From NCBI GenBank assembly GCA_965204535.1, contig OZ241996.1, positions 1,120,001-1,184,000 of the forward strand: a stretch of DNA of 64,000 bases, given 5' to 3'. Positions 35,629 to 62,525 of the stretch are shown one piece after another. The translations under genes and the position numbers were made by a program. The notes under the pieces are model-generated. The model ran no database searches, was not told the origin of the DNA, and saw nothing but the letters and a program-made list of their open reading frames with translations. How positions within the stretch are numbered: position 1 is the stretch's first letter; every line of letters starts with the position of its first letter. Source of the DNA: a bacterium. GTDB taxonomy: Bacteria > UBA8248.

Positions 35629-35790
35629 CCCGGCTTTCCAACAAGGCCGGGCCTTGGCTACCATCACAGAGAGAAAGTGAAGTCTCGCCTATTTACCTTT
35701 TGTTCGGGGAGCTACCCCAAACTAGGTACGAAGGCTTTTGTATTCAGCGAGTGACCCGACGTGCGGTCGGAATCCCTCTATGATGGTAGC
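35629..35790 (-). ncRNA. Candidate structured RNA, copy A (C4/CI-antisense-like architecture)
   Basis: 15-bp stem 35776-35790/35657-35671 with G-U only on the minus strand; core GUCGGGUCACUCGCUGAAUACAAAA homologous to 62421-62445; upstream TTGACT-N18-TACCAT. Confidence 0.7.
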
Positions 35791-35798
35791 TGGAAAAG

Positions 35799-35828
35799 AT
35801 GGTATGTGAGGTCGAATGTTAAAGTCAA
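35799..35828 (-). promoter_or_regulatory. Sigma70-like promoter for RNA copy A and the passenger operon
   Basis: TTGACT (35828-35823), 18 nt, TACCAT (35804-35799). Confidence 0.6.
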
Positions 35829-35937
35829 GATGCTATCAAACGGGGAGAAGTGAAAATGCGTATAAATAAATATAGGACTCTGGAAGATTAGGAAAGAAAT
35901 TGAAGAATATTTTTAGGCACTATTGTATATAATTCCC

Positions 35938-35963
35938 AAAACGCCCCTCGAAAACGGGGGCGC
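35938..35963 (-). terminator. Intrinsic terminator of the selenoprotein gene; transposon inserted in its U-tract
   Basis: Stem cgcccc/ggggcg followed by T-run on the minus strand. Confidence 0.65.
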
Positions 35964-35982
35964 ATTTCAAAGACGAATTTCG

Positions 35983-36675
35983 CTAGATAGCCGTGTCGGC
36001 GCGAGCGGTGAAGATGGTGTGCTCCATCCTGGGCATCCCCTCGAACTTGGGATCCTCGTTCACCATCCCGGCCAGATATTCATCCACGTGCTCCGCATTC
36101 GACCACGTGCATTTGTAGGCCACTTTCCCATCTTTGCCGATGAGCCAGATGGTGTTCGGCAGGTCCCCGAGCATGGCGTGCACCTTCTGGTCCATTTCGT
36201 CGACGAGGATGTTGGTTTCCATGTTCTTTATTTCGGCCAGCTTCTGGGCGTAGCTTCGCTTGTGCTCGTAGGATTCGTGGTTTCTGATCTCGGGGAATCC
36301 GCGCTCGCCCGCGTGGGGTTCCCTCACGTAGAGATTGAAGACGGCCACGTCGCGATCCGCATATTTCTCCTGCAACTCTTCGTAAAACGGCACCTGCCGC
36401 CTGTACGGCGGTCACGTGATGGCGCCCGTGGTGATCACCACGTATTTCTTGCCCAGATAATCCGCCATGCGATGGACGTTCCCGTGAATGTCCTTGAGTT
36501 CGAAGTCGGGGAAGGGGGCGCCGGGAGGAAGAACGTCCGGGAATTTCTCATAAAAACTTTTGACCCGTTTGCTCGTGACGAGTTTGATGGTCTTCCACAG
36601 GTTCAGATACTGCCAGGACCAAAAACCCGCCAGCGGCCCCCAGGGTTTGGGGACGGAATCGTTAGCCGGCCTCAT
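35983..36675 (-). CDS. Iodothyronine deiodinase-like thioredoxin-fold selenoprotein (Sec at TGA 36414-36412)
   Basis: Two track ORFs are in frame across a single TGA: TTGAIT-U-PPY (cf. deiodinase GSCTUPPF) and downstream YVREPH (cf. YIEEAH); RBS gaggag. Confidence 0.85.
36381..36407 (-). promoter_or_regulatory. Bacterial SECIS-like hairpin
   Basis: CGUA-C-AGGCGGC-[AGGU]-GCCGUUU-UACG; apical loop begins 17 nt after UGA with G in second position. Confidence 0.7.
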
Positions 36676-36872
36676 ATGAAATGACTCCTCTGCGATGTAC
36701 GCTTGATTGTATGATGGTGTGTAAGCCCGCTATTTGTTTACCCAATCGCAGAGTGAAACACAACCGCCAAGAAGTGGGAACGGAAAAAGGTTCCTGGGGG
36801 GTGAATTTTGCGAATTTTTTTCACATTGTTTTTCAAAATATTTTGTCATTTATCTAAAGTAAATTGTAGGGA

Positions 36873-36972
36873 TTAAAAATCGAACGACAGCTGCGGCTCT
36901 TTTTCCCCCGAAGCGCCTTTTGGGGGATGTTTCGAAGAATCTTTCTCTTTGCTTTGGGTGCGCGGCGGTTTT
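36873..36972 (-). pseudogene. Orphan duplicate 3' end of the gene at 38156-38989
   Basis: 97-bp gap-free match to 38162-38258 (about 83% by manual count); encodes KGASGEKEPQLSFDF*. Confidence 0.8.
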
Positions 36973-37175
36973 GTCGGGGTTTCTTTGCGCTGGCATCTCT
37001 CGGCGGTGTCGCGCAGGGTACGCAGAATAGATGTGTGGGAGCCATACGGACTGGTTATTCGTGAGGCCGACGCTGCAAGGTGCACAGTAGACCGACTTTG
37101 AACAGGCCAGGAGACAGAACTCTTGGTCGCTCAGAGTGCGCCTTGGCCGTTTCATCATGGTCCTGTTGCAGCCAA

Positions 37176-38102
37176 TTACGTGGATACCTCCAGAAACCGC
37201 TTTATAGCTTGTATGATACGTTCCGGTGCGTCCTCTTGAAGGAAATGACTCGCCTCCTCCAACTCATGCGTCGTTGCATGGGGATAAAGCTGTTGCCACA
37301 TGCGCAACACCGCAGGGGGAAGCACCGGGTCCTGCATACCCCAAACCAAGAGCACCGGGATATGCTGGAACTGTGTCAAGCCGTTCTCGATTTGTTGCAT
37401 CTCCGCGTAGGATTCGTCACTTGCCGTGACGGGAATATCGCGTGACCAGCACAGAAGCGCACGCCTGGATTCTGGTGTGCGGAACGGGGCTAGGTAGGCA
37501 TTCAGGACGGTCTCCGTGAGGTGGTTCGAATGGGCGGTCGTTCCCATCAACGCGGGTTTCACATAGCCATTCTTGCCCATAATAAAGGCTTCCCCACGGG
37601 GTGAGCGGATGAGTTCTATCAGCCGTGGCAACGGTCCCCCCGGCCACCGCGCGAACGCCCACGTATTCATCAGGATTAGCCGTTTCAAGCGGCTGGGATG
37701 TCGGATAGCGAAGCCCAGACCGACCGGCCCTCCCCAATCATGGACGACCAAGGTGATGTCGCGTAGTTCCAACCTCAAGATGAGCGTTTCGAGATTGTCA
37801 ATATGATGCCGGAGCCGATACGGATATGGGATTTCAGGCACGCCGGACTTGCCCATGCCCATGTGGTCGGGAACAATGCACCGGGCGTATTTGGAGAGGG
37901 ATGGGAGAAAGCGCCGATAGAGATAACCCCAAGTCGGGTCGCCGTGCAACAGGACCAGTGGGTCTCCTTCACCCACATCCACATAGTGCATTTGAAAGGA
38001 GTCCAGTTCCACATAGTGGGGCTCAAAAGGAAACGTCCCGTCAAAGTTCGCCTCTCTGAGACCAAGCACACGTCTGTTCCTTCCAATTCTCTTCCTGCTC
38101 AT
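37176..38102 (-). CDS. Haloalkane dehalogenase/OleB-like alpha/beta hydrolase
   Basis: LHGDPTW, VVHDWGG nucleophile elbow, WGMQD, ASHFLQED. Confidence 0.85.
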   Translation of the reverse strand: MSRKRIGRNRRVLGLREANFDGTFPFEPHYVELDSFQMHYVDVGEGDPLVLLHGDPTWGYLYRRFLPSLSKYARCIVPDHMGMGKSGVPEIPYPYRLRHHIDNLETLILRLELRDITLVVHDWGGPVGLGFAIRHPSRLKRLILMNTWAFARWPGGPLPRLIELIRSPRGEAFIMGKNGYVKPALMGTTAHSNHLTETVLNAYLAPFRTPESRRALLCWSRDIPVTASDESYAEMQQIENGLTQFQHIPVLLVWGMQDPVLPPAVLRMWQQLYPHATTHELEEASHFLQEDAPERIIQAIKRFLEVST

Positions 38103-38155
38103 ACAATAGGGCAGGTTGTTGACATCATGCTCCCCGAATAGAAACTTTCTAATTG

Positions 38156-38989
38156 CTACTTAAAATCGAACGACAGTTGCGGTTCTTTCTCGCCGGAAGC
38201 GCCTTTTTGGGGATGATTCGAAGAAATGTCTTCTTCTCCTCGGGTGCGCGGCGGTTTTTGGGGTGACTTCGCTTCTTCAGGCCTCGCATGGGTGGGGAGT
38301 TCAGATTCCCCCGGCGGGGGCCATCTCGGCTTTCTCGTTTCAGGCCGGGACGCAGCGTTCGGCCTCCCCGGCTCCTGAGAGTCGTTTCTCGACTTGAGGT
38401 CTGCGGCCGCCATTTCAAATGCCCTCGTCAAATTTTCAGGTTTTTGCCAGACGGCTTCTTGCGAGGATGCCCGGCCCCCGCCCTTCATGCGCATGAGTTT
38501 GGCTTTCAAATCCTCGATGCGCGCGTAAAAGCCGGGGCTGTGGGGCGTGGAGGGGATTCTGAGAAATTTCCGGTCGATGTGGTGCATGAGTTCGTGAATG
38601 AGTGTATCCAGAAACGTCTTGCCCGCGACGATCTGTTTGCGGATAGACGTGAGATTTGCGATTTCGATCATCGCGTTTCGGCAGTGGTAGACGCCGTAGA
38701 GCTTGTAGGCGAGTTTTCCTTCATACATTTCGTGGGGCTGCCGCTCGTTGATCACGCGCAGGCGCGCCCGCGGGATTTTGAGGCTTCGGCAGATGTTGTC
38801 GAGCAGTTTCTGGCCCAGCGCTTCGCGCTCGCTCGCGCTCGTGGATTCGATGAGCTTTCTGGTGAGTTCACGCTCCTCGTCTGCCGGTCGGTATTCGAGC
38901 GCCGGGAATTTGTTGGAGCGCGTGAAATCCGGTGTATTGCGGCGCCTGCCCATGAGAGATGGTTTCCGAGACGAGTCCGGGCGGAACAA
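38156..38989 (-). CDS. SprT/Wss1-like HExxH zinc metalloprotease with disordered tail ending QLSFDFK
   Basis: TLIHELMHH...PHSPGFYARI; start uncertain (TTG 38989 or ATG 38953). Confidence 0.7.
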   Translation of the reverse strand: MFRPDSSRKPSLMGRRRNTPDFTRSNKFPALEYRPADEERELTRKLIESTSASEREALGQKLLDNICRSLKIPRARLRVINERQPHEMYEGKLAYKLYGVYHCRNAMIEIANLTSIRKQIVAGKTFLDTLIHELMHHIDRKFLRIPSTPHSPGFYARIEDLKAKLMRMKGGGRASSQEAVWQKPENLTRAFEMAAADLKSRNDSQEPGRPNAASRPETRKPRWPPPGESELPTHARPEEAKSPQKPPRTRGEEDISSNHPQKGASGEKEPQLSFDFK

Positions 38990-39066
38990 GTCGCAGATAT
39001 GCGATAAGCCAACGAGTCAGGATTATACGCGAATCAGACCCCCGTGGCGAGAGGGCTGATTCGGGC

Positions 39067-40104
39067 CTAGTCGTTCTCCAGAATCTCCTCGATCGTCACA
39101 ATCCGCCTCTCGGCGTTGCTCTTGAGAATTGCCCGCATGATGGCGAGCGCGCGAACACCGTGGCGCCCTGTGACTTCGGGGTCCCTGTCCTCTCGAATGG
39201 CGTCGACGAGGTCGTCGAACTGCTCGCGGTTGGCGAGGAGCCTTCCCTCCACGAGGTCGTGGTCGAGTTCCACGATTGTGGTTTCGAGCCCGCCCATCGG
39301 GTCGATGGGGCGCTTGAGGTTCGGGTTTTCCGTCGTGGAAAGACTCAGGTTCGCTTCGGTGCCCTGAATGTCGTAGGCGAAGTGGAACGGGGCCAGATAG
39401 CTGCTGGAAATAACGCCCATCAGCCCGCTCTTGAAGCGCAGGATGGCCGCGGCGGCGTCTTCCTGGGGGTTGGGGCCGCCCACCTTGGCGCATGAGCCGC
39501 TCACCTCGTCCACGTCGCCGAAGAGGTATTCCATCATGTCCGCAAGATGGATGGTATAGCTGTAGAGCGGTCCTCCCGGGTTCTCCGTGGCGTCCCACCG
39601 CATGCTCTTGGGACCGGCGGTGAAGCCGTGGTTGTTCGAAAAAGTGGCGACCGTGTAGTTCACCAGCCCCAAATCCCCGCTCTCCACGATTTCCTTTGCC
39701 TTGCGGAACATCGGCCAGCGCCGGAAGTTCTGCCCCATGTGGAGTTTGACGCCGAAGTCCCTGCAAGCCTGTTCGATGGATTTCGCGTCGGAAACGCTGA
39801 GCGCCATGGGCTTTTCCAGATGAATGTGCTTGCCCGCTCGGGCGGCGGCCATGGCGATTTCCTTGTGCACGGAGTTCGCGGTGGCGATGACGACGGCTTC
39901 AGTCTCAGAGTCGGCCATCACCTCGTCAATAGAAGTAAAATTCTTTCCGCCGTATTTGCCCACAAACTCCTCGCGGGAAGAGGGCGTGCGGGCGAAGCCG
40001 CCTGTGACTTCCACCTTGCCGGAAGCGAGGGCGGCGTCTGCGAGCACGGCACCCCACCAGCCGAGCCCGATGAAGGCCATGCCGATTTTTGGAGAATCAT
40101 TCAT
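39067..40104 (-). CDS. Gfo/Idh/MocA oxidoreductase
   Basis: IGLGWWG, GKHIHLEKPMA. Confidence 0.9.
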   Translation of the reverse strand: MNDSPKIGMAFIGLGWWGAVLADAALASGKVEVTGGFARTPSSREEFVGKYGGKNFTSIDEVMADSETEAVVIATANSVHKEIAMAAARAGKHIHLEKPMALSVSDAKSIEQACRDFGVKLHMGQNFRRWPMFRKAKEIVESGDLGLVNYTVATFSNNHGFTAGPKSMRWDATENPGGPLYSYTIHLADMMEYLFGDVDEVSGSCAKVGGPNPQEDAAAAILRFKSGLMGVISSSYLAPFHFAYDIQGTEANLSLSTTENPNLKRPIDPMGGLETTIVELDHDLVEGRLLANREQFDDLVDAIREDRDPEVTGRHGVRALAIMRAILKSNAERRIVTIEEILEND

Positions 40105-40175
40105 CTATGGTTTCCTCGTATAAAGAAAAATGCGCGTTACACCCAAGCGAATGGAGAGCGGGTAGCTGATTTCTT

Positions 40176-40943
40176 CTAGCGGCCCTGCCATTCGGGTTTT
40201 CTCTTCTCCATGAAGGCCGCGAGGCCCTCCTGTGTGTCGCGGGAGGTCTGGAGGCGGTAGCTGATGAGTTTGGCATTAGCGATGCCCTCGCGCACGTCGG
40301 GCGTTCTGAGCCCCTTGAGCACCGCTTCTTTCGTGTGCTGCACAGCCAGCGGCGCATTCTCGTTGATGAGGGTGGCCATGGCGCGGGCCTCGTCCATCAG
40401 CTTGTCCTGGGGCACAACCTTGTTCACCATGCCCCAGCGTTCGGCTTCATCCGCGGTAATATTCCTGCCGGTCAGCATGAATTCCATGGCGATGCCGGGC
40501 GGGATGGTCTTGGGCAGGCGCTGGTGGCCGCCGAGGCTCATCGCGCCGTATTTGGGCTGCGGGTAGCCGAAAACCGCGTTTTCGGAAGCAATCCGGATGT
40601 CACACGAGAGCGCCATCGAGCATCCCCCGCCATAGGCGTAGCCGTTCACCGCGGCGATGATGGGCTTGTAAATCTCGTATTCGCCGTACCACATTGTGGG
40701 CGAGTCGTGCTCATTGTACTGGCCCTCGCTCTCGACGACCGAAGTGAGGTCATGGCCGGCACAGAACGCGCGGTCCCCTGCGCCGGTGATGATGGCCGTC
40801 CATACGTTGTTGTCTTTCATGAATTTCTGACTGACGTCGTACAAATCGTCCACCATTTCTTCGGTGTAAGAGTTGAGTTTCTCGGGCCGGTTCAGGGTGA
40901 TGATGGCGGTTCTGCCTTCCACTTCATAATTGATGCGGCTCAT
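40176..40943 (-). CDS. Enoyl-CoA hydratase/isomerase family protein
   Basis: LNRPEKLN, AFCAGHDL, KPIIAAVNGYAYGGG. Confidence 0.92.
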   Translation of the reverse strand: MSRINYEVEGRTAIITLNRPEKLNSYTEEMVDDLYDVSQKFMKDNNVWTAIITGAGDRAFCAGHDLTSVVESEGQYNEHDSPTMWYGEYEIYKPIIAAVNGYAYGGGCSMALSCDIRIASENAVFGYPQPKYGAMSLGGHQRLPKTIPPGIAMEFMLTGRNITADEAERWGMVNKVVPQDKLMDEARAMATLINENAPLAVQHTKEAVLKGLRTPDVREGIANAKLISYRLQTSRDTQEGLAAFMEKRKPEWQGR

Positions 40944-41190
40944 AGGACTTCTCCATATTGGTTTGACGAATCCGCTCGTTGCGTGTCCTTTGGGCCGAAA
41001 GTAGCGAGGCGACGGGGTTAAGTCAACGTCGGAGTGGAATCCTGCTCTTTCGACATACCTCCGAGTCTGCGTTTTCTTGACAGGTCAGGGCGCGGGTGCT
41101 AGCGTCGCCGCGAATTTCATATTCAGAATCATCTTTTGCGGGCTCGATATTTTCAGACCGAAATCTTTGTTTTTCGAGGAGGAAGACGCA

Positions 41191-42429
41191 ATGACGGACT
41201 ACCCCACGTGGGCGCGCGGGTCGATGATGGTCGACTGGGAGCACCGGATTGACATGGACCGCATGCGCCGAGAGCGCGTCGAGAAAACCCAGGCGGCGAT
41301 GAAGGAAAAGGGCATCGACGCCCTCATCCTCTGGAAGGACGAGAACGTGCGCTATCTAACGAGCGCGCGCGTCATCATGATTCAGTACCGCTCCTCCACC
41401 ACCTACGGGGTGCTGCTCAGACAGGAGGGAAACCCGACGCTGCTCGCCTCGAGCGGCGAGGCGCACCGCATCGAGGAGTGCATGCCCTGGATAGACGATT
41501 ACGTGCCCATCGGCATCCTGGAAGAGCCGGGCCTTGTGGAGCACACGGTGGGCACCGACATCAAGAAGCGCTTCGACGACTGGGGAGTTTCGAACGGAAC
41601 CATCGGTCTCGACGGGCACACGTTCACACAGCGGGCGATGATCGAAAAGTATTTCCCGGAAGCCACGTTCGTGGACGGCGAGCAGTTCATGTACATGAGC
41701 CGGGTGCAGAAGACGCCGGACGAGATAGCCTGCCTCCATCAGGCTTGCGCCATCGCCGACGCCGTTACCATCACGGCCTTGAACCACGCTGAGCCGGGCG
41801 TGCGTGAGTTCGACGTGGCGGCCGAGGCCATGAAGACGCTCTTCACCCACGGCGGGGAGTTCGGGCATCTGGCGTCTCCGTTCGTCGCTTCTGGCGAGCA
41901 CATGGCGCCGCCGACGCGCTTTCCCACCGATAAAATCATCAGGAACGCGGACATCGTCTTCATCGATATCGGAGCCTGCTGGAACGGGTATTTCGGCGAC
42001 TGCGGGCGCGCGAAGGTGGCCGGCGGCCCGCCCCATCCCATGCAGAAGAAGGTGTATACAACCGTCTACAAGTCGCTCAAGGCGGGGATCGAAAAGATGC
42101 GCCCAGGCTACACGAACGACGACTCGGCGGCGGAATTCCTGGAAGTCGCGCGCTCGGCAGGCTTGGAGGACAACTTTATCAAGCTGTTCATCGGACACGG
42201 CTGCGGCATTTCGCCCAACGAACCGCCATACGTGGGCGAGGTGATGCCCGGGGCCGAGAGCGTGGAGTTCGTGCCGGGGATGACGTTCGCCATCGAGCCG
42301 CTCATTTTCGTGCCGGGTATTCCCGGCGGGGCCGGCGTGCGGATTGAAGATCATATCCTCATCACCGAGGATGAACCCGTCTACATGACGCGCGCTCCCT
42401 ATTGCGAGGAATTGATCATTCAGGATTGA
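41191..42429 (+). CDS. M24-family (Xaa-Pro peptidase/creatinase fold) hydrolase
   Basis: Metal ligands FIDIG, GDCGR, GHGCG, AIEP, RIED. Confidence 0.88.
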   Translation: MTDYPTWARGSMMVDWEHRIDMDRMRRERVEKTQAAMKEKGIDALILWKDENVRYLTSARVIMIQYRSSTTYGVLLRQEGNPTLLASSGEAHRIEECMPWIDDYVPIGILEEPGLVEHTVGTDIKKRFDDWGVSNGTIGLDGHTFTQRAMIEKYFPEATFVDGEQFMYMSRVQKTPDEIACLHQACAIADAVTITALNHAEPGVREFDVAAEAMKTLFTHGGEFGHLASPFVASGEHMAPPTRFPTDKIIRNADIVFIDIGACWNGYFGDCGRAKVAGGPPHPMQKKVYTTVYKSLKAGIEKMRPGYTNDDSAAEFLEVARSAGLEDNFIKLFIGHGCGISPNEPPYVGEVMPGAESVEFVPGMTFAIEPLIFVPGIPGGAGVRIEDHILITEDEPVYMTRAPYCEELIIQD

Positions 42430-42449
42430 GCAGGCGTTGACTTGAATCG

Positions 42450-42482
42450 GCGCCCCTGGCCTGAGGTCCGGGGGCGCTTTTT
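42450..42482 (+). terminator. Intrinsic terminator
   Basis: gcgcccc..ggggcgc plus ttttt. Confidence 0.65.
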
Positions 42483-42509
42483 CATTTTGTTGGTTGTGAG
42501 GCGAGGCAT

Positions 42510-43370
42510 GTGTTGACAGAGATTCCCCTGGCCATCGCGGCGTCGGCTTTTTTTGCGCTGACCTTCATCTTCTCGCGCCTGGCGACGCGGGAGGCGACGC
42601 CCGTGTTCGGCGGGTTCGTGGCTTCGGCCACGGTGACGCTCCTTTATCTGCCCTGGATAGCGGCGAGCGTACCGCTGAGCGCTTTCGCCAACCCGCACCT
42701 GCTCTGGTTCGTGGGGCTCGGCGTCATCACGCCCAGCATATCGAGGACGTTTCAGTTCGCGGGCGTCCAGCGCATCGGGGCGGCGCCTTCGGGCATCCTG
42801 CGCGGCCTGGGTCCTCTTTTCTCGAGCACACTGGCCGTCTTGCTGCTGGGCGAGCAACTCACGCCGATCCTCGCCCTGGGAACCGCCCTCATCGTCTGCG
42901 GCATCGTCGTCTTGTCGATCAGGAAAGACGAGATGCGCTCTTGGGCGCTCACCGGAATCGCCTACGCCATCGGCGCCACGCTCATATGGGTCATGCGCGA
43001 CCTCATCATCCGCTACTCCTCGCCGGATGTGCCCTACAAGACGCTGGCGATTTTCGTGATGGCGGGGACGTCGAGCATCGTCATGGCGTTGGTTCTTGCG
43101 AATTCCAAAAGCGGGCGCGAGGACTTCACCGGAAAGGGCCTCTTTTATTTCGTCCTCGTGGGACTCGCCAGTTTCTCGGCTCTGACATCGCTTTTCTTCG
43201 CCCTCGAGGAGGGACGTATCGTCGTTGTGACGCCGATCACCTCGGCGCAACCTTTGTTCGTGCTGCTCTTCTCGCGCTTCTTACCGCAAGGCATGGAGCC
43301 GCTGACGCCGCTCATGGTGCTGGGCGCGGCATTTATCGTCGCGGGAGGCGCGCTGATCAGCCTGGCGTGA
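42510..43370 (+). CDS. DMT/EamA-family transporter
   Basis: About 10 TM, duplicated EamA halves (LLGEQLT). Confidence 0.85.
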   Translation: MLTEIPLAIAASAFFALTFIFSRLATREATPVFGGFVASATVTLLYLPWIAASVPLSAFANPHLLWFVGLGVITPSISRTFQFAGVQRIGAAPSGILRGLGPLFSSTLAVLLLGEQLTPILALGTALIVCGIVVLSIRKDEMRSWALTGIAYAIGATLIWVMRDLIIRYSSPDVPYKTLAIFVMAGTSSIVMALVLANSKSGREDFTGKGLFYFVLVGLASFSALTSLFFALEEGRIVVVTPITSAQPLFVLLFSRFLPQGMEPLTPLMVLGAAFIVAGGALISLA

Positions 43371-53170: not shown

Positions 53171-53179
53171 TTCTTGATT

Positions 53180-55058: not shown

Positions 55059-55076
55059 GATGTTGTTCTTTCTCCC

Positions 55077-55877
55077 CTAAATGATTTTATCTTCACGAAG
55101 GCGTAGGGCCAGAGCGCCGGCTGCTTCTTCGAGTGATTCGCCTTCGATGAATTCGCAGTTCCCGTCAAAAACGGGCTTGTAGAATTTGGTGACTTCAAAA
55201 GTGGCCGCCCCTTTTCCGACAGAGGCGGGGTCGATTCCGATGTCCGTCGCGCCCCAGACGGGGATCTGCTTGCGCGACGCCATGAGAATGCCTTTGACCG
55301 AGGGCAGGCGGGGCGTGTTGATCTCGTTGCTGGCGGTGAGCAGGCACGGAGTCGATACTTCCACGACCTCCACGCCGTCCTCCAGGGCGCGTTCGCACCG
55401 GATCCCTGAGTCCGTTTTCTCCACTTTCTGGAGCTGGCTCACGCTGGGAAGTTCGAGCGCTTCAGCGAGGGCGAGGGCAGTGGTTCCATAGCTCCAGTCG
55501 CTGCTCAACCTGCCGCAAAAGATGACGTCAAAACCGTCGATCTTTTGAATCGCGCCCGCCAGAATCCGCGCGATGGCGAAGGCGTCGGAACCCTCGAAAG
55601 CATCGTCTTGGAGCAAAATGGCTTCATCGCATCCCATGGCCAGGCATTTTTTCAGACCGTCTCTGGCTTTTTCGTCGCCCATCGTCATGACGGTGACTTT
55701 TCCGCCATGCTCTTCCTTGAGGTTGATGGCCGCTTCGACGGCGTTTTCACAAAAGCCGTTGATGACGGGCGATACGTTTGCGGGCGGGATGACGTCCATC
55801 TTCTCCTCATCGACCTTGAAATCGCGGGGAGGAATGTCGGGGTCTTGAACTTGCTTGATGCAGGCGATGATATCCAA
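55077..55877 (-). CDS. etfB: Electron transfer flavoprotein beta subunit
   Basis: CIKQVQD, LAMGCD, NTPRLPS. Confidence 0.94.
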   Translation of the reverse strand: MDIIACIKQVQDPDIPPRDFKVDEEKMDVIPPANVSPVINGFCENAVEAAINLKEEHGGKVTVMTMGDEKARDGLKKCLAMGCDEAILLQDDAFEGSDAFAIARILAGAIQKIDGFDVIFCGRLSSDWSYGTTALALAEALELPSVSQLQKVEKTDSGIRCERALEDGVEVVEVSTPCLLTASNEINTPRLPSVKGILMASRKQIPVWGATDIGIDPASVGKGAATFEVTKFYKPVFDGNCEFIEGESLEEAAGALALRLREDKII

Positions 55878-56185
55878 AGGGTTGATTCTCCTTGTTGATG
55901 CCGGTTCGAATCCGTCATGGTTGTTTGAGGTGCTCGGATGTGTTGTGAATCAACAAAACGAGACGCCTAAAAATAATGAGATGGAGTCGATGCGTCAACC
56001 GAGAAAGGCGTTTTTCCCGATTTTGCCCGCCTCCCCGGCACGCGCTCCCAAAGCGGTTCGTCCTTTCATGTTTGACAGGCAAAAAAATCCGCGCGATAAG
56101 ATGAAAACGCTCCGGTATGAGGGCGAAACATTCCGACAGACGATTTTTCAGCGCGTTTCGGGTTTTGGATTAGAGGATCCCTTCC

Positions 56186-57277
56186 ATGTCAGAAGCAAGC
56201 GAAGCCCAGGTTCTAGAGGCTCTGAAGAAAGTGCGAGACCCAGAGGTCGGAAAAGACTTGGTGAGTCTCAACATGATCAAGGATGTCCAGATTTGTGGAG
56301 ATGCGGTCGCCTTTACACTGCAGTTGACCACACCTGCGCATCCGCGCAAGGAAGAGTTCGAGCAGGAGTGCAAGCTGGCGGTCGGCTCTTTGGAGAACGT
56401 GAATTCGGTGAACGTCCGGGTGACGAGCCACGTCACCGCGCGGCCATCGATGGCTGGCAAAATGGACGTCGTTGGTGTGAAGAACATCATCGCCATAGCG
56501 AGCGGGAAGGGCGGCGTGGGTAAATCGACCGTGGCGGTGAACGTTGCGCTCGCCCTGAGCCGGGAAGGCGCGAAGGTGGGGGTGCTCGACGCGGACATTT
56601 ACGGGCCGAGCCAGCCCCTGATGCTCGGAATCCCCGCAGCGCGGCCCATCGCCGAGGAGGGGAACAAGATACGGCCTCTGGAAGCTCATGGGCTAAGGGT
56701 CATGTCGATGGGGTTTCTGGTCGATGAGGACAGCCCCGTCATCTGGCGCGGTCCCATGGTCATGCGGGCACTCGTGCAGTTTTTGAGCGAGACGATATGG
56801 GGAGAACTCGACTATCTCGTCCTGGACCTGCCCCCCGGCACCGGCGACGCGCAACTGACCATCGTCCAGCAGGTTTCTCTGGCGGGCGCCGTCATCGTCA
56901 GCACGCCGCAGGACATCGCTCTTCTCGATGCGCGCAAGGGTCTGCAGATGTTCCGGAAAACCGACGTGCCCATTCTCGGGATCATCGAAAACATGAGCTA
57001 CTACGTGTGCCCCGAATGCGGGTATCGCGAGAACATCTTCGACACCGGCGGCGGGGAGAAGGCCTCCCAGCGCTACGAAGTCCCGTTCCTGGGCGCCATT
57101 CCACTCGACATCAAGGTGAGGCTGGGGGGAGACTTCGGCGTGCCCGTCGTAGCGGGAGAGCCGGATCATCCGACGGCCAAGGCATTCCGCGAGGCGGCCA
57201 GAAAAGTGGCCGAGCAGGTGGCCATCGCCAACGCCTCGGGACCCATATCGGTGCCGGAACTCAAGATCATCGGATAG
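56186..57277 (+). CDS. mrp: Mrp/ApbC/NBP35 Fe-S carrier ATPase
   Basis: ASGKGGVGKST, DADIYGPS, WRGPM, DLPPGTGD, ENMS..CPEC. Confidence 0.95.
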   Translation: MSEASEAQVLEALKKVRDPEVGKDLVSLNMIKDVQICGDAVAFTLQLTTPAHPRKEEFEQECKLAVGSLENVNSVNVRVTSHVTARPSMAGKMDVVGVKNIIAIASGKGGVGKSTVAVNVALALSREGAKVGVLDADIYGPSQPLMLGIPAARPIAEEGNKIRPLEAHGLRVMSMGFLVDEDSPVIWRGPMVMRALVQFLSETIWGELDYLVLDLPPGTGDAQLTIVQQVSLAGAVIVSTPQDIALLDARKGLQMFRKTDVPILGIIENMSYYVCPECGYRENIFDTGGGEKASQRYEVPFLGAIPLDIKVRLGGDFGVPVVAGEPDHPTAKAFREAARKVAEQVAIANASGPISVPELKIIG

Positions 57278-57444
57278 AAGAGTCCGCGAAAGTGTGCGTC
57301 TTCATGCTGAAAGGTTAGGTTCGCAAATCTGACTTGGATCAACAGATTATCTTTAAGTCCACCGGTCGTTTCGTTCGTTTGTGTAGCTTTTCTCCGGCGA
57401 GCCGAGCACGCGATTTTTCATAAGCTCATAAGAGGATTAACGTC

Positions 57445-58392
57445 ATGGCGAAAGTAGTTTTGATCGATCCGCTTTATTCGACGCCGGCGTGGAACGTGGC
57501 TTCCGACTGGCTGGGAGCGGAGCACGAGGTCGTCGCTCCGGCCGAATACACGCCGGAGGCCATCGAGCCGCTGCTGCCGGATTCGGAAGGCATTCTCACC
57601 GTGTTCCGGCCCGTTTCGCCCGAGATGATGGACATGGCGCCAAACCTCAAGGTGGTGGCCAAACCGGGTGCTGGCGTGGACAACATCGACGTCGATGCGG
57701 CGAACGAGCGCGGCGTCATGGTCTGCAACGTCGAGGGCGTCCGGGGGCGCTCCGTGGCGGAACACGCCTTTTTCATGGCGCTGTATCTCGCGCGTCACGC
57801 CTGGATGCGCGATGAGCAGGAAACCTGGGAGCACGTGCCTGCGGTGCAACTGGGCGGCAAATCGCTCGGCATCGTGGGGCTCGGGGATATCGGCAGGAGA
57901 GCAGCGCGCATCGGCCATGGTTTCGGCATGGAGTTGCTCATCAACACGCGGACGGAGGATCCCTCCTACGTGCCTGAGGCGAAGCTCGAGTTCACCTCTT
58001 TCGATGCGCTTTTGCCGCGTGCCGATTTCCTGATCTTGTGCATGCCCCTGGCGCCCGAGATGCGGGGCATCATGAACAGGGCGAATCTCTTGAAAATGAA
58101 GCCGGACGCCATCCTCATCAACGTTTCGAGAGGCCCCGCCGTGGTGAGCGACGATCTTCTGGAGGTGATGCGCGGCGGCCATCTCGCGGGCGCGGGGCTC
58201 GACGTCACCGATCCCGAGCCCCTGCCGAAAGACCATGGCTTGTGGGGGATCGAGAACGTCATCATCAGCCCGCACCACGCTTCCCGGACGCCCGAGACGC
58301 AGGTCGCCGCGATGGATCGCACGGCGGAGAACATGCGTCTGGCCTTAGGCGGCCAAAGACCCGTAAACATCGTGAATCCAGGGGTCATGTAA
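57445..58392 (+). CDS. D-isomer-specific 2-hydroxyacid dehydrogenase
   Basis: GAGVDNID, GLGDIG, INVSRG, LDVTDPEP, SPHHA. Confidence 0.92.
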   Translation: MAKVVLIDPLYSTPAWNVASDWLGAEHEVVAPAEYTPEAIEPLLPDSEGILTVFRPVSPEMMDMAPNLKVVAKPGAGVDNIDVDAANERGVMVCNVEGVRGRSVAEHAFFMALYLARHAWMRDEQETWEHVPAVQLGGKSLGIVGLGDIGRRAARIGHGFGMELLINTRTEDPSYVPEAKLEFTSFDALLPRADFLILCMPLAPEMRGIMNRANLLKMKPDAILINVSRGPAVVSDDLLEVMRGGHLAGAGLDVTDPEPLPKDHGLWGIENVIISPHHASRTPETQVAAMDRTAENMRLALGGQRPVNIVNPGVM

Positions 58393-58444
58393 GCGATTCC
58401 CCAAGCCGGACAGGCCGACGCAGGCCGGCCGGGTCGGAGTGTGA

Positions 58445-59302
58445 ATGCCGTTTGAATTGGTTGCCCTGAGCCCGGCCGTCTTCTTCGCCCTCTCGAGCAT
58501 CATGACCAAAAGAGGGTTGGACGGCAGCACGCCGCACACGGGCAGCCTGGTCGTCCTGATCATGCAGCTTGTCTTCTTCTCCTCCTGCCTGGTGGCGGTG
58601 GATTTCTCCCGGATATCGGTTTCGGTCCACTGGATCGCTTTTCTGGCGGCGGGGATTTCCTCGCCCGCGCTGTCGTTGGTGTTCCTGTTTCGTTCGATCC
58701 AGAGGATCGGCGTCGCCTCGACAAGCCCGGTCTCCAACACCCACCCCATATTCGGGGCGTTCTGGGCGTTTCTGGTGCTGGGGGAACGCCCGCCCGCCGT
58801 CTTGTGGCTGGGTATCCTCGTTGTCGTGGCGGGTGTTTTCTGCATGACGAGTGGAGGAGGTCCGCTCGCCAGAGGCCGCGTGCTGCTGTTGCCGGTCACC
58901 GCGGCGGCTTTCATGGGGCTCGCCCACACGTTCAGGAAAATGGGGCTGGGAGGCGTGGAATCCCTTGTTTTCGGGGGGTTTCTGCAATCCGTCTCGGCAT
59001 GCGCCCTGGGTCCTTTGATCCTGAAGGCGGGCACCGGGTGGAGGCCGTTCGTGTTCAACAGGCCCTCGCTCGGCAACTTCATCCTGGCGGGTCTCGCGAT
59101 GGCGGCCGCCCAGTTGTGTCTCATGGCCGCACTGAGCATAGGGGAGGTGTCGCGCGTGACGCCCATGGTGGCGACGGTGCCGCTTTTCATGCTCGTGCTC
59201 GCACCCCTGATACTCGGGGAGCGCGAGAGGATCACCCCGCGTATCGTCCTGGGCGTGCTGATCACGGTGGCGGGGGTGATTCTGGTGACTTCGCTGCGCT
59301 AG
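58445..59302 (+). CDS. DMT/EamA-family transporter
   Basis: About 10 TM; LVLGER and LGERE motifs. Confidence 0.85.
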   Translation: MPFELVALSPAVFFALSSIMTKRGLDGSTPHTGSLVVLIMQLVFFSSCLVAVDFSRISVSVHWIAFLAAGISSPALSLVFLFRSIQRIGVASTSPVSNTHPIFGAFWAFLVLGERPPAVLWLGILVVVAGVFCMTSGGGPLARGRVLLLPVTAAAFMGLAHTFRKMGLGGVESLVFGGFLQSVSACALGPLILKAGTGWRPFVFNRPSLGNFILAGLAMAAAQLCLMAALSIGEVSRVTPMVATVPLFMLVLAPLILGERERITPRIVLGVLITVAGVILVTSLR

Positions 59303-59702
59303 GCGCGATCCGGCTCGATTTCGACGTAACACCTTATCTTTCAAATATATAAATTTTCAGGAATTTACCGAAAAACCCCGCTAATTTATCGATATTTTCA
59401 GGAATTCCCCCGCCGCCGGAGGCGGCGACTCACCCCGCGACCATAGCCGATACCCGGGAGCGCGCATGACGGCAAATGCGGGGAAATGCGCGCCGGCGCG
59501 GGCGGGGCTTCCCCGACGGGCGGGGAATGATGGGTGAGACTGGAGAGCAGGGGCGGACCCGCGCGTCCGCGCCCGCGTTTTGTTTTCACCGTCGTTCCGG
59601 CGAATGACGGTGGAGACCGGGAGATTGGCCGAAGCCGGGGGGGGGGGTGGAGATGCAGCGGCGTTCTCGAAAACGGCGAGGCGGATTTTCGGGGAGAGGC
59701 GC

Positions 59703-60677
59703 TCAGGCGGCGATTTCGAGATAGGGCGATTCCCCCGGGACGGGGGAGCGGAGTTTTTCCAGAACGTGAGGATTCCGCCGGACGATCTCGAACAGCATTC
59801 CGAGGCTGAGGTGGTTGCAGAAATCATCGTCCCATTCCAACCGGTTCTCGCAGTTCTCCCTTGTCAACCGGAAGCGGGACCAGGAGAGTTTCCCGTCGGG
59901 GTCCTCTTCCATCCCCACGATGAGTTCGTCTCCGTAGAACCATATCCACATTTCCAAATCGCCGATGCGGACGGGTTCGACTTCGGGCCGCCCGCCCTTG
60001 AACCTGCCGAATGCGCCCACGCGGGCGAATGAGGGAACGTCGTCGCCGGTAACGCCGAGCTTATGGAGAATCTCCATCCCCAGTTCGAATGAAATCTCGG
60101 GGTCGTCGTTGTTGTGGGTGGAAAATTGTCCCACCACATCTTTCTCGCCCAGGTCGATCTTCAGCAGGGCGTATGGCTTCTCTCTCTTGAGAAACAACCA
60201 GAACTTGAATTCGCCGGCTTCGGTTTGTTCCCAGTATCTTTCTGCGTCCTCGCGCTTTCCGACGCAGATTTCGAGAGTTTTTCCGATGGCCATGAGCTTC
60301 TTGAGGGAGAGCACCTCTTCGAGCCGGAATTCCCCGCTGAGGGGGATGGTTCCGGGGGCGGCTTCTGCTTCGGCGCGCCTCTCGCGGGCGTCGGTCAACT
60401 CCTTTCTGAAGAGGTTTCCATTCTTGCAGGCCTCATCGAAGGAATGGCGGCAGCTCTTGAGGAGTTTCCCGGCCCTGCGCCTCACGGCCTCGTCCTCATG
60501 CCCGGAGCACTTGAGAGCTTGCCGGATGGACCTGAGTGCGGTGCGCACGGTTCGCTCGCCGGTCTCTCCCTTCTCTTGCAGGTAGGCGTCAATCCCGTTC
60601 TTGAGTTTTTCGAGGGGAAAATCCTCGCCTGCTTCTTTTTTCAGGCGGTTCCACTGCATCAGGCATTCGGCGTTCAT
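59703..60677 (-). CDS. Hypothetical protein with PcfJ-like domain
   Basis: LMAIGKTLEICVG..Y..PYALLKI..GQFSTHNN resembles the PcfJ L..EG..M.HCV..Q..G..N pattern. Confidence 0.55.
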   Translation of the reverse strand: MNAECLMQWNRLKKEAGEDFPLEKLKNGIDAYLQEKGETGERTVRTALRSIRQALKCSGHEDEAVRRRAGKLLKSCRHSFDEACKNGNLFRKELTDARERRAEAEAAPGTIPLSGEFRLEEVLSLKKLMAIGKTLEICVGKREDAERYWEQTEAGEFKFWLFLKREKPYALLKIDLGEKDVVGQFSTHNNDDPEISFELGMEILHKLGVTGDDVPSFARVGAFGRFKGGRPEVEPVRIGDLEMWIWFYGDELIVGMEEDPDGKLSWSRFRLTRENCENRLEWDDDFCNHLSLGMLFEIVRRNPHVLEKLRSPVPGESPYLEIAA

Positions 60678-60695
60678 GTTTTTCCCTTCATTTAT

Positions 60696-60721
60696 GGGAC
60701 TTATATACGATGGTGCCTAAA
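60696..60721 (+). mobile_element. Third copy of the IS1595 terminal inverted repeat (end of a second element or remnant)
   Basis: gggacttatatacgatggtgcctaaa, 23/26 identical to reverse complement of 35912-35937; GC drops immediately after. Confidence 0.8.
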
Positions 60722-60784
60722 TTACTTATTGGATGTTGACGATTTAGCTATGCTCACAATCTCGTCTGATTGTTTCCCGTTCCA

Positions 60785-61120
60785 TCATTTCAACCTTTCC
60801 CAAAAGTTGTAACCGGGAGGATCATCAAGACGGCGCAAATGGATTACTTTTGCGACAGTTTCTTCTTCATCGTAAGTCCTAGGGTCTAATTCAGGGTCAT
60901 AGTCGGGATCATTTTTATCCCAATACAAGTGTGAAAGGTCTGTATCATCTTTGGGGAGATAACCTTCTACTCGATATGCTATGAGGAGTCCATAACGTAA
61001 CCATGCCAGGTTAAACATCTCCTCAAGATCAAGCCCTGCGGAAATCCAATCCTTTTCGATAAAACGAACCCATTCCATCGCTTTTTCGTGAATGTTGTGC
61101 TTTGTCACTTCATTCATCAT
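60785..61120 (-). CDS. Hypothetical AT-rich protein
   Basis: 111 aa; ATGA overlap with XRE gene stop. Confidence 0.55.
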   Translation of the reverse strand: MMNEVTKHNIHEKAMEWVRFIEKDWISAGLDLEEMFNLAWLRYGLLIAYRVEGYLPKDDTDLSHLYWDKNDPDYDPELDPRTYDEEETVAKVIHLRRLDDPPGYNFWERLK

Positions 61121-62094
61121 GAGCGATTCTCCTGCTCGTCCGCCTCATCGCCAGGGTCGGTTTCGCCGCTCAACATTTTTCCGAGTTTGATGGCGGCGGC
61201 CATCATCTCCTCACAGGCGGCCCATTCATCGTCTGTGATCTGCGCCTCAAGCCAATTCATGCGCTCTCGGGCGATTTCTTCGCCTTCGCCGCGCAGGCGC
61301 TTGGGGATTTGGCTGAGGCGCGCGTGCCCGTGGGAGAGGACCCACTCGGCGCGCCGTGAGCCGCCGGTGATGCGCTCGCGGAGTACAGGGAAAAGATAGC
61401 CCCTGCAGCTTATGTCGGGGTCGAACTCGACGTCTTCGGGGTCGAGCGCGCCGTTGTCGGCTTCCAGATTTTCGGCCAGTCGCTTCAGGAAATTGGAGAA
61501 GGGGTTCCCGTTTTCCCGATAATCCTCCCAGCGTGGGTCGTCCCACTCGAGGTTTCCGGGGTGGCGGAACAGGTCGCGCCTCCCGATGGATTCCTCCTCC
61601 TCCTCGTATGCCCACCCGGAGTCTGCGAGATGCTCGGGCAGGGCGCGGTTGAATTCTTCGAGGACGGCTCTGGCTTCCTCGACCCGGCGGCGGCGTTCGG
61701 CGAGGCTCGCTTCGGCGAGGAGGGTGAATAGCATGGGGGCCTCCTCGATGAGCCTGTGCACCTCCACCCCGTAGTGTTCCTCCACCATGTCGTAGGCGAG
61801 GGCGGTTTCGCTGTCCAAGTGAACCCTGGGGCCTGAGCCGCCGGAATCGAAGTTGATCCGGGATATTTCGTCCCGCACCGCTTCTGATTCGGGGCCAAGC
61901 GCCAGAATCCGGGGATTCCCCAGCTTCAGGGCACCAGCGAGCAACCGGGCGGTGGATTCTCGCGCTTCGCCTCCGTTTGCGCTCTCGAGACGGCCGATGG
62001 TCTTCTTTTCGATCTTCGCCTTATCGGCCAGTTCCTGCTGGCTCCATCCCTGCGCCTTGCGCAGTCTTTTCAGTGTTTCGGGGTGTATCTTCAT
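61117..62094 (-). CDS. XRE-family HTH protein with large C-terminal domain
   Basis: LKRLRKAQGWSQQELADKAKIEKKTIGRLE; RBS gagg. Confidence 0.8.
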   Translation of the reverse strand: MKIHPETLKRLRKAQGWSQQELADKAKIEKKTIGRLESANGGEARESTARLLAGALKLGNPRILALGPESEAVRDEISRINFDSGGSGPRVHLDSETALAYDMVEEHYGVEVHRLIEEAPMLFTLLAEASLAERRRRVEEARAVLEEFNRALPEHLADSGWAYEEEEESIGRRDLFRHPGNLEWDDPRWEDYRENGNPFSNFLKRLAENLEADNGALDPEDVEFDPDISCRGYLFPVLRERITGGSRRAEWVLSHGHARLSQIPKRLRGEGEEIARERMNWLEAQITDDEWAACEEMMAAAIKLGKMLSGETDPGDEADEQENRS

Positions 62095-62164
62095 CGTATG
62101 AACCTCATGCGGAAAAGTTTGTTGTCTCCGTATCCTGGAGCCATAATACACTTATTATATGAGA

Positions 62165-62200
62165 TATTAAATAGAAATTATAATAAATATCTATTTAATA
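62165..62200. promoter_or_regulatory. Putative operator (11-bp inverted repeat)
   Basis: tattaaataga-N14-tctatttaata upstream of the XRE gene. Confidence 0.5.
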
Positions 62201-62356
62201 ATGGCGTATATATGGAATTTTGGAGACGAAATATCTCTTTTATGGGATATTTAGGGGCTGAGGTGGTGAGGGGGTGTTGGAGCTCCCGCTTTGCTCTCCG
62301 GCGTGTCCGTTCGAGTCAAGACATCATCTCTCCCCGTTTTAACGAATTGGTTTCGC

Positions 62357-62385
62357 TTGACAAATTTCAACATCACAATCAAGAT
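62357..62385 (+). promoter_or_regulatory. Sigma70-like promoter for RNA copy B
   Basis: TTGACA-N17-CAAGAT; predicted +1 coincides with stem start at about 62393. Confidence 0.55.
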
Positions 62386-62392
62386 ATTTCTC

Positions 62393-62525
62393 GCCACATA
62401 ACCTAGGGCTTGATCTGCTGGTCGGGTCGCCCGCGGAATACAACACCGCTTCCTTGCGGGAATACGCGGGAACCTACCCAAGAGTCTATAGGTTATGTGG
62501 CAATCGGCCCGATTGTAAGGGTCGA
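62393..62525 (+). ncRNA. Candidate structured RNA, copy B (homolog of 35629-35790)
   Basis: Perfect 13-bp stem 62393-62405/62489-62501; CCCGCG-GAAUACAACA-CCGC..GCGG-GAAUA-CGCGGG; alternative stem 62420-62429/62505-62514. Confidence 0.7.

Follow-up and report, generated by a model that had tools for sequence, protein, structure and literature searches.

A compact sRNA-Xcc1-type RNA of IS1595 elements and chromosomal loci that probably represses the gene behind it by a C4/CI-style antisense mechanism

Two stretches of the 64,000-nucleotide segment of bacterial DNA analyzed here (hereafter, the window), copy A (35790->35629, minus strand) and copy B (62393->62525, plus strand), both located where the initial annotation had placed them, are true copies of one folded RNA family. 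Judged by its sequence, this family is a diverged, compact, self-masked sRNA-Xcc1-type RNA, and, with a probability that we put at about 0.62, it acts as an antisense repressor of the gene behind it, in the manner of the C4 and CI RNAs of phages P1 and P4. All pairing and folding energies given below are predicted values, and copies that are related cannot count as independent observations.

The surroundings of copy A form a complete IS1595 element, with the following features:

32700..32725, plus strand: left terminal inverted repeat of the element (repeat search)
33114..34052, plus strand: IS1595 DDE transposase, 312 aa (PF12762, E 7e-39; PF12760)
34601..35038, minus strand: second cargo gene, TM2-domain membrane protein (PF05154, E 9.5e-11)
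35035..35604, minus strand: first cargo gene behind A, 189 aa, hydrophobic in its C-terminal half, predicted target
35610..35626, minus strand: putative second target of the antisense segment of A, over the Shine-Dalgarno sequence (predicted duplex)
35629..35651, minus strand: 3' hairpin of A, including the 3' strand of P1 (folding)
35646..35760, minus strand: predicted mature core of A (model R1, 51.1 bits)
35657..35676, minus strand: variable antisense segment (anti-leader) of A (folding, pairing)
35773..35790, minus strand: 5' leader of A, pairs with the anti-leader (-32.2 kcal/mol)
35799..35828, minus strand: predicted sigma70-type promoter of A (sequence inspection; family-wide spacing)
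35912..35937, minus strand: right terminal inverted repeat of the element (repeat search)

The locus has the hallmarks of an IS1595 transporter element, namely, a DDE_Tnp_IS1595 transposase, paired repeats, a flanking duplication and passenger genes. The duplication is an identical 7 bp at 32693-32699 and 35938-35944; in this genome, four other elements have one of 8 bp. The RNA, on the opposite strand from the transposase gene, points at the 3' end of that gene. A Pfam search assigned the first cargo gene to no family, and the start of the second cargo gene overlaps its stop. The features around copy B are these:

60696..60719, plus strand: orphan IS1595-type terminal repeat that faces B from 1.7 kb upstream (profile score 22.8 of 26.5)
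62357..62385, plus strand: predicted sigma70-type promoter of B (sequence inspection)
62393..62411, plus strand: 5' leader of B (folding)
62421..62513, plus strand: predicted mature core of B (model R1, 90.9 bits)
62480..62501, plus strand: antisense segment of B, which also pairs with the leader of a third copy
62504..62525, plus strand: 3' hairpin of B (folding)

The initial annotation had put both copies beside an IS1595-type terminal repeat. This holds with a qualification. In A, 147 nt separate the RNA from the right repeat of its element, further out; around B, a search for paired repeats and a transposase found only the single strong repeat at 60696, 1.7 kb away, and a terminal-repeat profile search detected no partner for it within 9 kb.

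Both copies fold more stably than any of 200 shuffled versions (A, -75.8 kcal/mol, z -7.03; B, -65.5 kcal/mol, z -5.65), and their 25-nt cores agree in 21 of 25 positions, the identity originally reported. Of the two exclusive folds that had been proposed, fold 1 is the minimum free energy structure of both A and B, and fold 2, comprising the outer stem P1, P2, an internal loop and P3, is upheld by stem covariation: among 38 aligned cores, which are related to one another and 24 of which were collected with a pattern in which part of P1 is fixed, 95.8% of the cells are paired and 11 of the 18 pairs show two-sided changes, a value matched by 0 of 500 shuffles. The core of A consists of P1, P2, the GAAUACAA/RAAUA internal loop, a long P3 and the antisense loop; folded by itself, it forms P1, and the core of B alone folds as P1+P2+P3 (-34.4 kcal/mol). 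Across the family, the bases of the GAAUACAA/RAAUA loop are nearly invariant, and the antisense loop is 25-43 nt long and modelled as open. In the predicted folds of full transcripts, P1 is absent (0/65), its strands being sequestered in rival hairpins (H1 in 40/65, the 3' hairpin in 61/65); with the leader blocked, P1 appears in 9/65. As originally noted, the leader is complementary to a 3' segment, but the duplex spans about 18-19 bp by folding rather than 13-15 nt. As to the promoter, 38 of the 65 distinct leaders are preceded, 33-37 nt from their start, by a TTGA(C/T)-like box.

The proposed division into a conserved scaffold and a variable specificity segment is supported. In 85 of 116 copies, the leader duplex reaches -26 kcal/mol or better. 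After 33 of the 116 were left out (31 with a weak leader duplex or a short flank, plus mis-anchored ones) and identical leaders were merged, 65 distinct leaders remained, in 31 address clusters; in this set, which was selected for a strong duplex, leaders pair with their own loops at a mean of -24.1 kcal/mol and with foreign loops at -9.3 +/- 4.6.

A second cognate site downstream, over the ribosome-binding site, appears to be clear only in a subset of copies, A included. In A, the antisense segment forms a 16-bp duplex with 35610-35626 (-18.3 kcal/mol, top 5% compared with foreign segments); the site is a copy of the leader, and pairing with the antisense segment is predicted to be kept because all differences from the leader are C>U or A>G. 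Across the family, the loop ranks in the top 5% against its own next 100 nt in 16/65 copies, compared with 5/65 for the leader against the same region, and against its own start region in 8/35, compared with 2-3/39 for control regions. The ribosome-site tests, which cover the 31-39 copies with a called ORF, vary with the control. Compared with random genome sites, the loop prefers its own ribosome-binding site in 11/31 copies at p<=0.1 (cluster-level p=0.002, 16 clusters). With foreign loops as the control, the clusters give no significant difference (p=0.18), and with shuffled loops, the preference holds in 11/31 copies and is reversed in 4 (p=0.036 by copy and 0.19 by cluster). A cognate downstream site seems clear in A and in about a quarter to a third of the copies, with cluster p from 0.002 to 0.19 depending on the control, but is absent close behind B, where no specific target was found in the next 300 nt (rank 0.80). 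One copy carries a cognate site downstream in addition to two upstream, three in all. When the leader is blocked, the predicted cost of opening the ribosome-binding site rises by more than 1 kcal/mol in 21 of 31 copies and falls in 5; in A, the cost increases from 5.4 to 13.5 kcal/mol. The leader gave no signal as an anti-Shine-Dalgarno sequence across the family. Among 39 phage/sRNA-Xcc1-type relatives (L181, from genome G245, excluded), the loop is in the top 10% against its own upstream region in 21/39 (controls, 3/39) and against its own downstream region in 19/38 (controls, 3/38).

The claim that this RNA has no known relative is not supported. It is a diverged relative of RF02221, the sRNA-Xcc1 family of Rfam, as indicated by the shared core and by reciprocal matches: other family members score 29-47 bits on RF02221 (L147, 46.7 bits, and 39.8 on R1), the phage loci L193, L202 and L218 exceed the cut-off of RF02221 while scoring 34-43 bits on R1, and R1 gives 22 matches at E<=0.016 among 29 RF02221 loci. 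A and B themselves give no match to RF02221 (gathering cut-off, 53 bits), and RF02221 yielded 0 matches in this genome at E<=1 among the 150 of 488 candidates that were scored. An Rfam search of the window gave 0 matches at the gathering cut-off and, at E<=10, weak unrelated matches at A and none at B, the C4, c4-2 and isrK models remaining unmatched. An HDV-like ribozyme, considered on account of the crossing helices, was dropped (first helix of 15-19 bp, catalytic core absent by eye), as was a retron (no reverse transcriptase in the 67 ORFs of the window and 67 neighboring ORFs).

The family and sRNA-Xcc1 have in common an outer stem with a GGG/CCC core, an inner stem, the AAUACAA-n-ACC / GGAAUA internal loop, a variable 3' region and carriage by mobile DNA. 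They differ in that sRNA-Xcc1, at about 87 nt, has a third-arm hairpin whereas the family has a longer, open loop; in that the leader match is a continuous 15-19 bp at the start site in the family but is split into sites up to 100 nt upstream in classic sRNA-Xcc1; and in that the family, unlike sRNA-Xcc1, apparently targets exported proteins. sRNA-Xcc1 is described as a discrete 88-nt RNA identified by Northern blot and RACE (PMC2996969) and, in the papers covered, as a trans-acting sRNA tied to virulence, with no mention of a C4-like repressor role. Literature searches, judged by title or the opening of the abstract, turned up no account of this RNA in IS1595 elements or of sRNA-Xcc1 as C4-like; outside this coverage, the main paper on sRNA-Xcc1 (Chen et al. 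2011) and the PMC5737381 supplement on c4-2 may each bear on novelty.

The family has 17 copies in this genome and occurs in 20 of 22 genomes of the genus as well as in Acidobacteriota and Alphaproteobacteria. The strict two-part pattern matched 0 viral and 4 metagenome loci, and the core-only pattern matched 33 viral loci, 24 of them confirmed by R1. The expected enrichment in IS1595 elements was found in this genome, where 4 of 5 transposase loci carry the RNA inside their repeats, but not the expected specificity: outside this genome, 19 of 77 copies are near IS1595 and 58 are without any sign of it within 4.5 kb. The association is strong but not exclusive, the carriers being both IS1595 elements and tyrosine-integrase elements. 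The usual unit runs from a promoter-like site through leader, core, antisense loop and 3' hairpin to a ribosome-binding site and the gene of an exported or membrane protein. By a rough heuristic, 25 of 39 downstream genes encode a hydrophobic N-terminus, compared with 566 of 3439 long ORFs; start codons were assigned by a simple script, and in 26 of 65 copies there was no clear ribosome-site-led ORF within 170 nt. The downstream genes share no common pathway.

This layout agrees with the proposed likeness to C4 and CI: the variable loop pairs with its own leader and, in a subset including A, with a second site over the ribosome-binding site, a seqA/seqB/seqC arrangement. In P4, the CI antisense RNA is flanked by the cognate sites seqA and seqC (PMC4825925), and the C4 RNA of P1/P7 is reported to control ant (PMC8201110). 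As in P4 CI and P1 C4, the family RNA has a cognate site upstream on the transcript that it would control and, in that subset, apparently another downstream, and specificity shifts by paired changes. However, the scaffold differs from that of C4 (RF01695) and CI, and the family is found in transposon cargo and chromosomal loci rather than in a phage immunity operon. Control of an antirepressor or kil operon, a C4/CI trait, is absent here, where the cargo is membrane or exported, and is indicated only in two distant relatives: L147 (Bro-N+ANT) and L211 (AntA) precede antirepressors above the Pfam cut-off in the downstream-gene domain scan, from which the L168 ORF was left out.

We propose that newly made transcripts have their leader paired to the antisense loop and their P1 strands held in small hairpins, so that the ribosome-binding site would be comparatively open and the cargo made. 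Trimming at both ends, which the model needs because P1 is absent from full-transcript folds, would release an RNA of ~90-115 nt with P1 closed and a loop of ~33 nt exposed. Later transcripts that share its address could then be bound by this RNA, either at their leader or at their ribosome-binding site. Once the leader of a transcript is occupied, the loop of that transcript is predicted to fold onto the ribosome-binding site, thereby stopping translation. After entry into a naive cell, cargo would be expected to appear in a burst and then settle to a damped, address-specific level, with IS1595 cargo elements as one main vehicle of such units. C4 and CI RNAs are processed by RNase P. A CC(A)-type tail after the stem is a feature of sRNA-Xcc1, and CCA is present in 21 of 39 members of the phage set but in only 5 of 65 family copies, so that the reading of the family RNA as an RNase P substrate is weak.

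The same pairings might have the opposite sign or actor, with the short 5' leader or the core activating the cargo in trans. The precedent is IsrK of Salmonella (Gifsy-1, RF01394), described as a structural homolog of P4 seqA that activates orf45-anrP translation in trans (PMC4825925). IsrK and, on the proposed model, the family share a dual small/messenger RNA logic with trans action on their own read-through transcript; IsrK activates via an upstream ORF and has its own terminator, whereas in the family no U-tract terminator follows the leader. Activation would fit the G000:C2:2470187 group, where a loop-like rather than leader-like stretch lies over the downstream start, the solo loop-like sites at G000:C1:979674 and C2:854318, and the 5 of 31 sites that open more easily with the leader blocked; yet 21 of 31 close, and the leader lacks a family-wide signal against its own downstream region (5/65), and we regard activation as unlikely. 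Much the same low probability applies to a switch acting only in cis, in which a ligand, a protein or temperature acts on the internal loop to flip the folds, the variable helix being purely structural. The near-invariant GAAUACAA/RAAUA bases, the location of the RNA in 5' leaders and the capture of the P1 strands in rival hairpins are all compatible with such a switch. It is hard to reconcile with leaderless copies that keep the exact loop of another locus, leaders of degenerate copies that still fit a neighbor, downstream genes without a common pathway, and the discrete 88-nt sRNA-Xcc1 RNA (PMC2996969).

The roles in transposition control or as a guide that had been suggested at the outset are not supported, given that the RNA precedes cargo genes and the loop matches no element end. 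An element-specific immunity or attenuator RNA for the IS1595 transposase or its copy number, which the 4 of 5 occupied transposase loci might suggest, is improbable: the RNA heads cargo genes, A reads towards the transposase 3' end on the other strand, transposase starts lack a cognate site in a genome-wide loop search, and most copies have no IS1595 nearby. We give hardly any credence to a guide RNA whose variable loop would address a transposase or nuclease to DNA, notwithstanding the resemblance of a fixed scaffold with a 25-43 nt loop to guide architectures. Across the genome, matches of at least 14 pairs for the 17 loops are leaders, the opposite strand of the copies themselves or a few cognate RNA-like sites, or else occur at the shuffle rate (0-6), and none falls at element ends or insertion flanks; no constant partner protein accompanies the RNA; and the second targets tolerate G-U pairs, which points to RNA-RNA pairing. 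The family RNA reveals no new RNA-guided or catalytic system.

Returning to antisense repression, several observations suggest that it extends in trans. Just past the window end, ahead of a lipoprotein gene, there is a third, degenerate copy (G000:C1:1184287), the leader of which pairs at -31.2 kcal/mol with the segment of B compared with -18.7 with its own; the pair recurs in G005. More generally, in two address groups, partner copies with a broken P1 have leaders that pair better with the loop of the intact neighbor than with their own (G000, -30.8 vs -22.3 kcal/mol; G005, -30.8 vs -19.2; G008, -24.7 vs -9.8; G022, -25.8 vs -9.0). Some gene-less intact copies, such as B, likely control degenerate partner copies in trans. 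Furthermore, three leaderless copies carry the same loop as G000:C2:2470187.

More tentatively, and with rather less than an even chance in our estimate, a phage immunity-type switch might have been recruited to build a genome-wide network in which address codes control surface proteins. If so, one scaffold would support many orthogonal loop/leader codes, in units spread by IS1595 elements; gene-less intact ‘master’ copies like B would govern degenerate ‘slave’ copies; integrase elements, through the leaderless copies that they carry, would broadcast the code of a genus-conserved locus; and incoming DNA could switch host loci. sRNA-Xcc1 would then be a second C4-like class of repressors, unrecognized as such, and would provide orthogonal riboregulators in the form of a natural library. 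The present analysis gives a testable mechanism to sRNA-Xcc1, an Rfam family that is widely annotated yet has no cognate target in the literature that we found, and suggests that, for the control of passenger genes, cargo transposons of the DDE type can bring along antisense switches of the kind known from phages. The natural leader/loop pairs on a single 90-nt scaffold offer a set for deriving specificity rules and for orthogonal gene control.

The initial annotation placed two copies of one structured RNA in the window, and re-reading of the sequence confirmed both positions as well as the identity of 21 of 25 nucleotides between the cores:

35790 to 35629, minus strand: RNA copy A
62393 to 62525, plus strand: RNA copy B

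For both copies, folding predicted the first of the two proposed structures, namely, a leader duplex of ~18-19 bp, a small hairpin that sequesters the 5' strand of the conserved stem, an inner arm, and a 3' hairpin. None of 200 shuffled sequences equaled the folding energy of copy A (-75.8 kcal/mol, z -7.03) or of copy B (-65.5 kcal/mol, z -5.65).

Iterated searches identified 17 copies of this RNA in the genome under study (G000), all confirmed with R1, a covariance model built from 38 cores. R1 matches were detected in 20 of the 22 genomes of the genus, G000 included, in 21 of 36 other genomes of the family, and in none of 15 distant control genomes. An exact pattern retrieved 30 loci from genome collections, labeled as Nitrospinota, Vicinamibacterales, Terriglobia, Alphaproteobacteria or just “bacterium”, and the RNA is present in 7 of 141 genomes of the phylum of one other genome, G061. 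In the core, the outer stem P1 (8 bp) stacks on P2 (6 bp); a conserved internal loop and a variable P3 follow, and an antisense loop of 25-43 nt lies on the 3' side. The covariation of the stem holds in a 38-row alignment, where 95.8% of the cells are paired and 11 of 18 pairs changed on both sides (none of 500 shuffles matched the observed pairing, and slid alignments paired at 30-48%); independence is overstated in this test because the rows are mutually related and 24 of them were picked via a search pattern in which part of P1 is fixed.

An Rfam search returned no match for either copy, and neither did a search of G000 with RF02221, the Rfam model of sRNA-Xcc1. More distant family members match RF02221 below the cut-off, with up to 47 of 53 bits; reciprocally, R1 yields 22 matches among 29 RF02221 loci, and three phage loci exceed the RF02221 cut-off and match R1 as well. 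By score, the RNA of copies A and B falls outside RF02221, and by sequence it falls outside C4, the antisense immunity RNA of phage P1; it represents a compact, diverged subfamily of sRNA-Xcc1-type RNAs. Northern blotting and RACE showed sRNA-Xcc1 to be 88 nt long (PMC2996969). It has been reported from integron cassettes, where it precedes symE (10.1101/2025.06.18.660453), from Xylella islands (PMC12189769) and from APSE phages (10.1101/2020.03.17.996009); the passages cited name no cognate target for it. A literature search, whose reach ended short of the main sRNA-Xcc1 paper (Chen et al. 2011) and one supplement, retrieved no description of this RNA in IS1595 elements.

In 85 of 116 copies, loop and leader pair at -26 kcal/mol or below, and the loop/leader energy is -24.1 for own against -9.3 for foreign pairs. 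For 16 of 65 loops, pairing with the next 100 nt of the same locus ranks in the top 5%. In copy A, the differences between the downstream site and the leader preserve pairing as G-U:

35610 to 35626: predicted target site of copy A, covering the Shine-Dalgarno sequence of the cargo gene (189 aa) behind the RNA

In silico blocking of the leader makes the loop of copy A pair with this site and raises the cost of opening it from 5.4 to 13.5 kcal/mol; across copies, this cost increases by more than 1 in 21 of 31 and decreases in 5. Ribosome-site pairing is significant over clusters when compared with random ribosome sites (p=0.002) and lacks significance when compared with foreign loops (p=0.18). 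Against shuffled loops, 11 copies are up and 4 down (p=0.036 per copy, 0.19 over clusters), with 13.9 against 7.2 for copy A. Ribosome-site masking is not universal among the copies. Among relatives from phages and Alphaproteobacteria, pairing of the loop with the upstream region of its own locus ranks in the top 10% in 21 of 39 cases (controls, 3/39), and pairing with the downstream region does so in 19 of 38 (controls, 3/38). Antirepressor genes above the Pfam cut-off lie behind two relatives and weak Rha matches behind two more; most of the 28 ORFs scanned belong to other families or to none.

The analysis shows the architecture, covariation, cognate pairings and genomic context of this RNA, which most likely works like C4 and CI, the corresponding RNA of phage P4. 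Transcription would start at the predicted promoters, and in the full-length transcript the loop is predicted to be held by the leader (mean probability of the leader-paired state, 0.92). In folding, P1 forms in the trimmed core only; it would close once processing had removed the flanks, and a short RNA would accumulate. Occupation of the leader is predicted to mask the ribosome site, and the processed RNA would repress in trans. Processing, performed by RNase P in the case of C4 and CI RNAs, is the weakest step because P1 needs both flanks off and the CCA after the stem is mostly missing here (5 of 65 copies vs 21 of 39 phage-type relatives). The arrangement of cognate sites flanking this RNA resembles that of P1 a1b1/a'b'/a2b2. 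The C4 targets a1 and b1 are listed in the supplement of PMC2864571, and P4 seqA/CI/seqC, as described in PMC4825925, likewise comprises an antisense RNA with cognate sites on both sides. A guide-like role, also suggested initially, found no support, the genome matches of the loops missing the element ends.

The contribution of G000 is a putative within-genome network with many addresses (cognate leader/loop sequence pairs), master and partner copies, and leaderless copies. Three kinds of locus hint that the RNA acts in trans. Three copies lack a leader, carry a -10-like box immediately before P1, and share the loop of the copy at C2:2470187, a locus present in many members of the genus; they lie in a repeated element:

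G000:C2:379401, 2392992 and 1585664 (loci L011, L012 and L013): tyrosine integrase, HTH_17 gene, leaderless RNA, lipoprotein gene

G002 and G016 also contain leaderless copies with this loop; G002 has eight RNA matches of the leaderless-type short length, five of which were checked. Directly behind copy B there is no gene, and the 300 nt that follow hold no specific target, but another copy lies nearby:

G000:C1:1184287-1184412 (L005:6286-6426): third copy, just beyond the window end, 1.9 kb downstream of copy B

In this third copy, the leader is that of copy B, P1 is broken and the loop is foreign; the copy precedes a gene for a 422-aa lipoprotein of no Pfam family. Its leader pairs at -31.2 with the loop of copy B vs -18.7 with its own; it is likely a trans target of copy B. 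Decay after duplication could explain single partner copies of this kind, but it hardly accounts for leaders that stay matched to a neighbor in several genomes: the same pair is found in G005, two such partner copies in G003, and G008 and G022 show this pattern for a second address group. Three cognate sites belong to the copy at C2:1231538: one where an upstream promoter starts, one in its own leader, and one ~190 nt downstream, before a lipoprotein gene.

Copy B and the third copy are separated by a 1.5-kb low-GC insertion (window 62678 to ~64170), which L039 and L040 lack. It contains a split P-loop ATPase-like gene (62768-63394) and a 179-aa ORF, and has a 7-bp repeat at both junctions. 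Solo stem-flanked stretches with the loop sequence of genus-conserved copies occur at G000:C1:979674 and C2:854318; one of them precedes a 337-aa ORF (minus strand), and the other follows a lipoprotein gene. At L009:6340-6375 and its orthologs, a loop-like stretch covers the Shine-Dalgarno sequence and start codon (ATG) of a conserved ORF of 6 codons, situated behind the genus-conserved RNA copy.

Both copies had been placed beside an IS1595 terminal repeat. Copy A indeed lies within a complete element, flanked by a 7-bp duplication, whereas copy B has a single strong repeat, at 60696, with no partner within 9 kb:

33114-34052: IS1595 transposase of the element of copy A
32700-32725 and 35912-35937: terminal repeats of this element

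Of five IS1595 transposase loci detected in G000 by tblastn, four hold the RNA between their repeats; two further copies lie in transposase-less repeat pairs and one in a degenerate pair. Altogether, 9 of the 17 copies are within 4.5 kb of a strong repeat, compared to 5.3% of random positions, an enrichment that is partly circular because the repeat profile was trained on these same elements. The link is not exclusive: in other genomes, a transposase or strong repeat is near 19 of 77 copies with full flanks. At 13 further loci from distant genomes, a transposase is present in six cases, three of them inside repeat pairs with 8-bp duplications. Three copies of the RNA reside in tyrosine-integrase elements, and many are solitary. 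By these counts, IS1595 is a main vehicle of the RNA, and other homes exist too. The gene behind the RNA usually encodes an exported or membrane protein (hydrophobic N-terminus in 25 of 39 called ORFs vs 566 of 3439 long ORFs).

The only IS1595 element of G000 without the RNA (L017:5622-8650) bears EcoRI-type methylase and GmrSD/HNH genes. Among the 33 strong IS1595-type repeat sites of this genome, 16, mostly unpaired, are more than 4.5 kb from every RNA copy and are remnants of former elements. Five near-identical, short membrane-peptide ORFs in tandem adjoin an IS1595 element at L008:3546-5872. At L154 and L158, RNA copies lie beside transposase-like ORFs without an IS1595 match, which we take to be IS1-like; the cargo of L158 is a TM2 protein, like that of the element of copy A.

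A multi-copy lipoprotein family is present at 16 places in G000. The ~500 nt upstream of its genes are highly conserved and contain strong inverted repeats; this region is possibly another mobile unit or a leader RNA. At 35983-36675 of the window (minus strand), an AhpC/TSA-like gene is split by a TGA into two in-line ORFs of 87 aa (weak Pfam match) and 136 aa, a configuration compatible with possible selenocysteine read-through.
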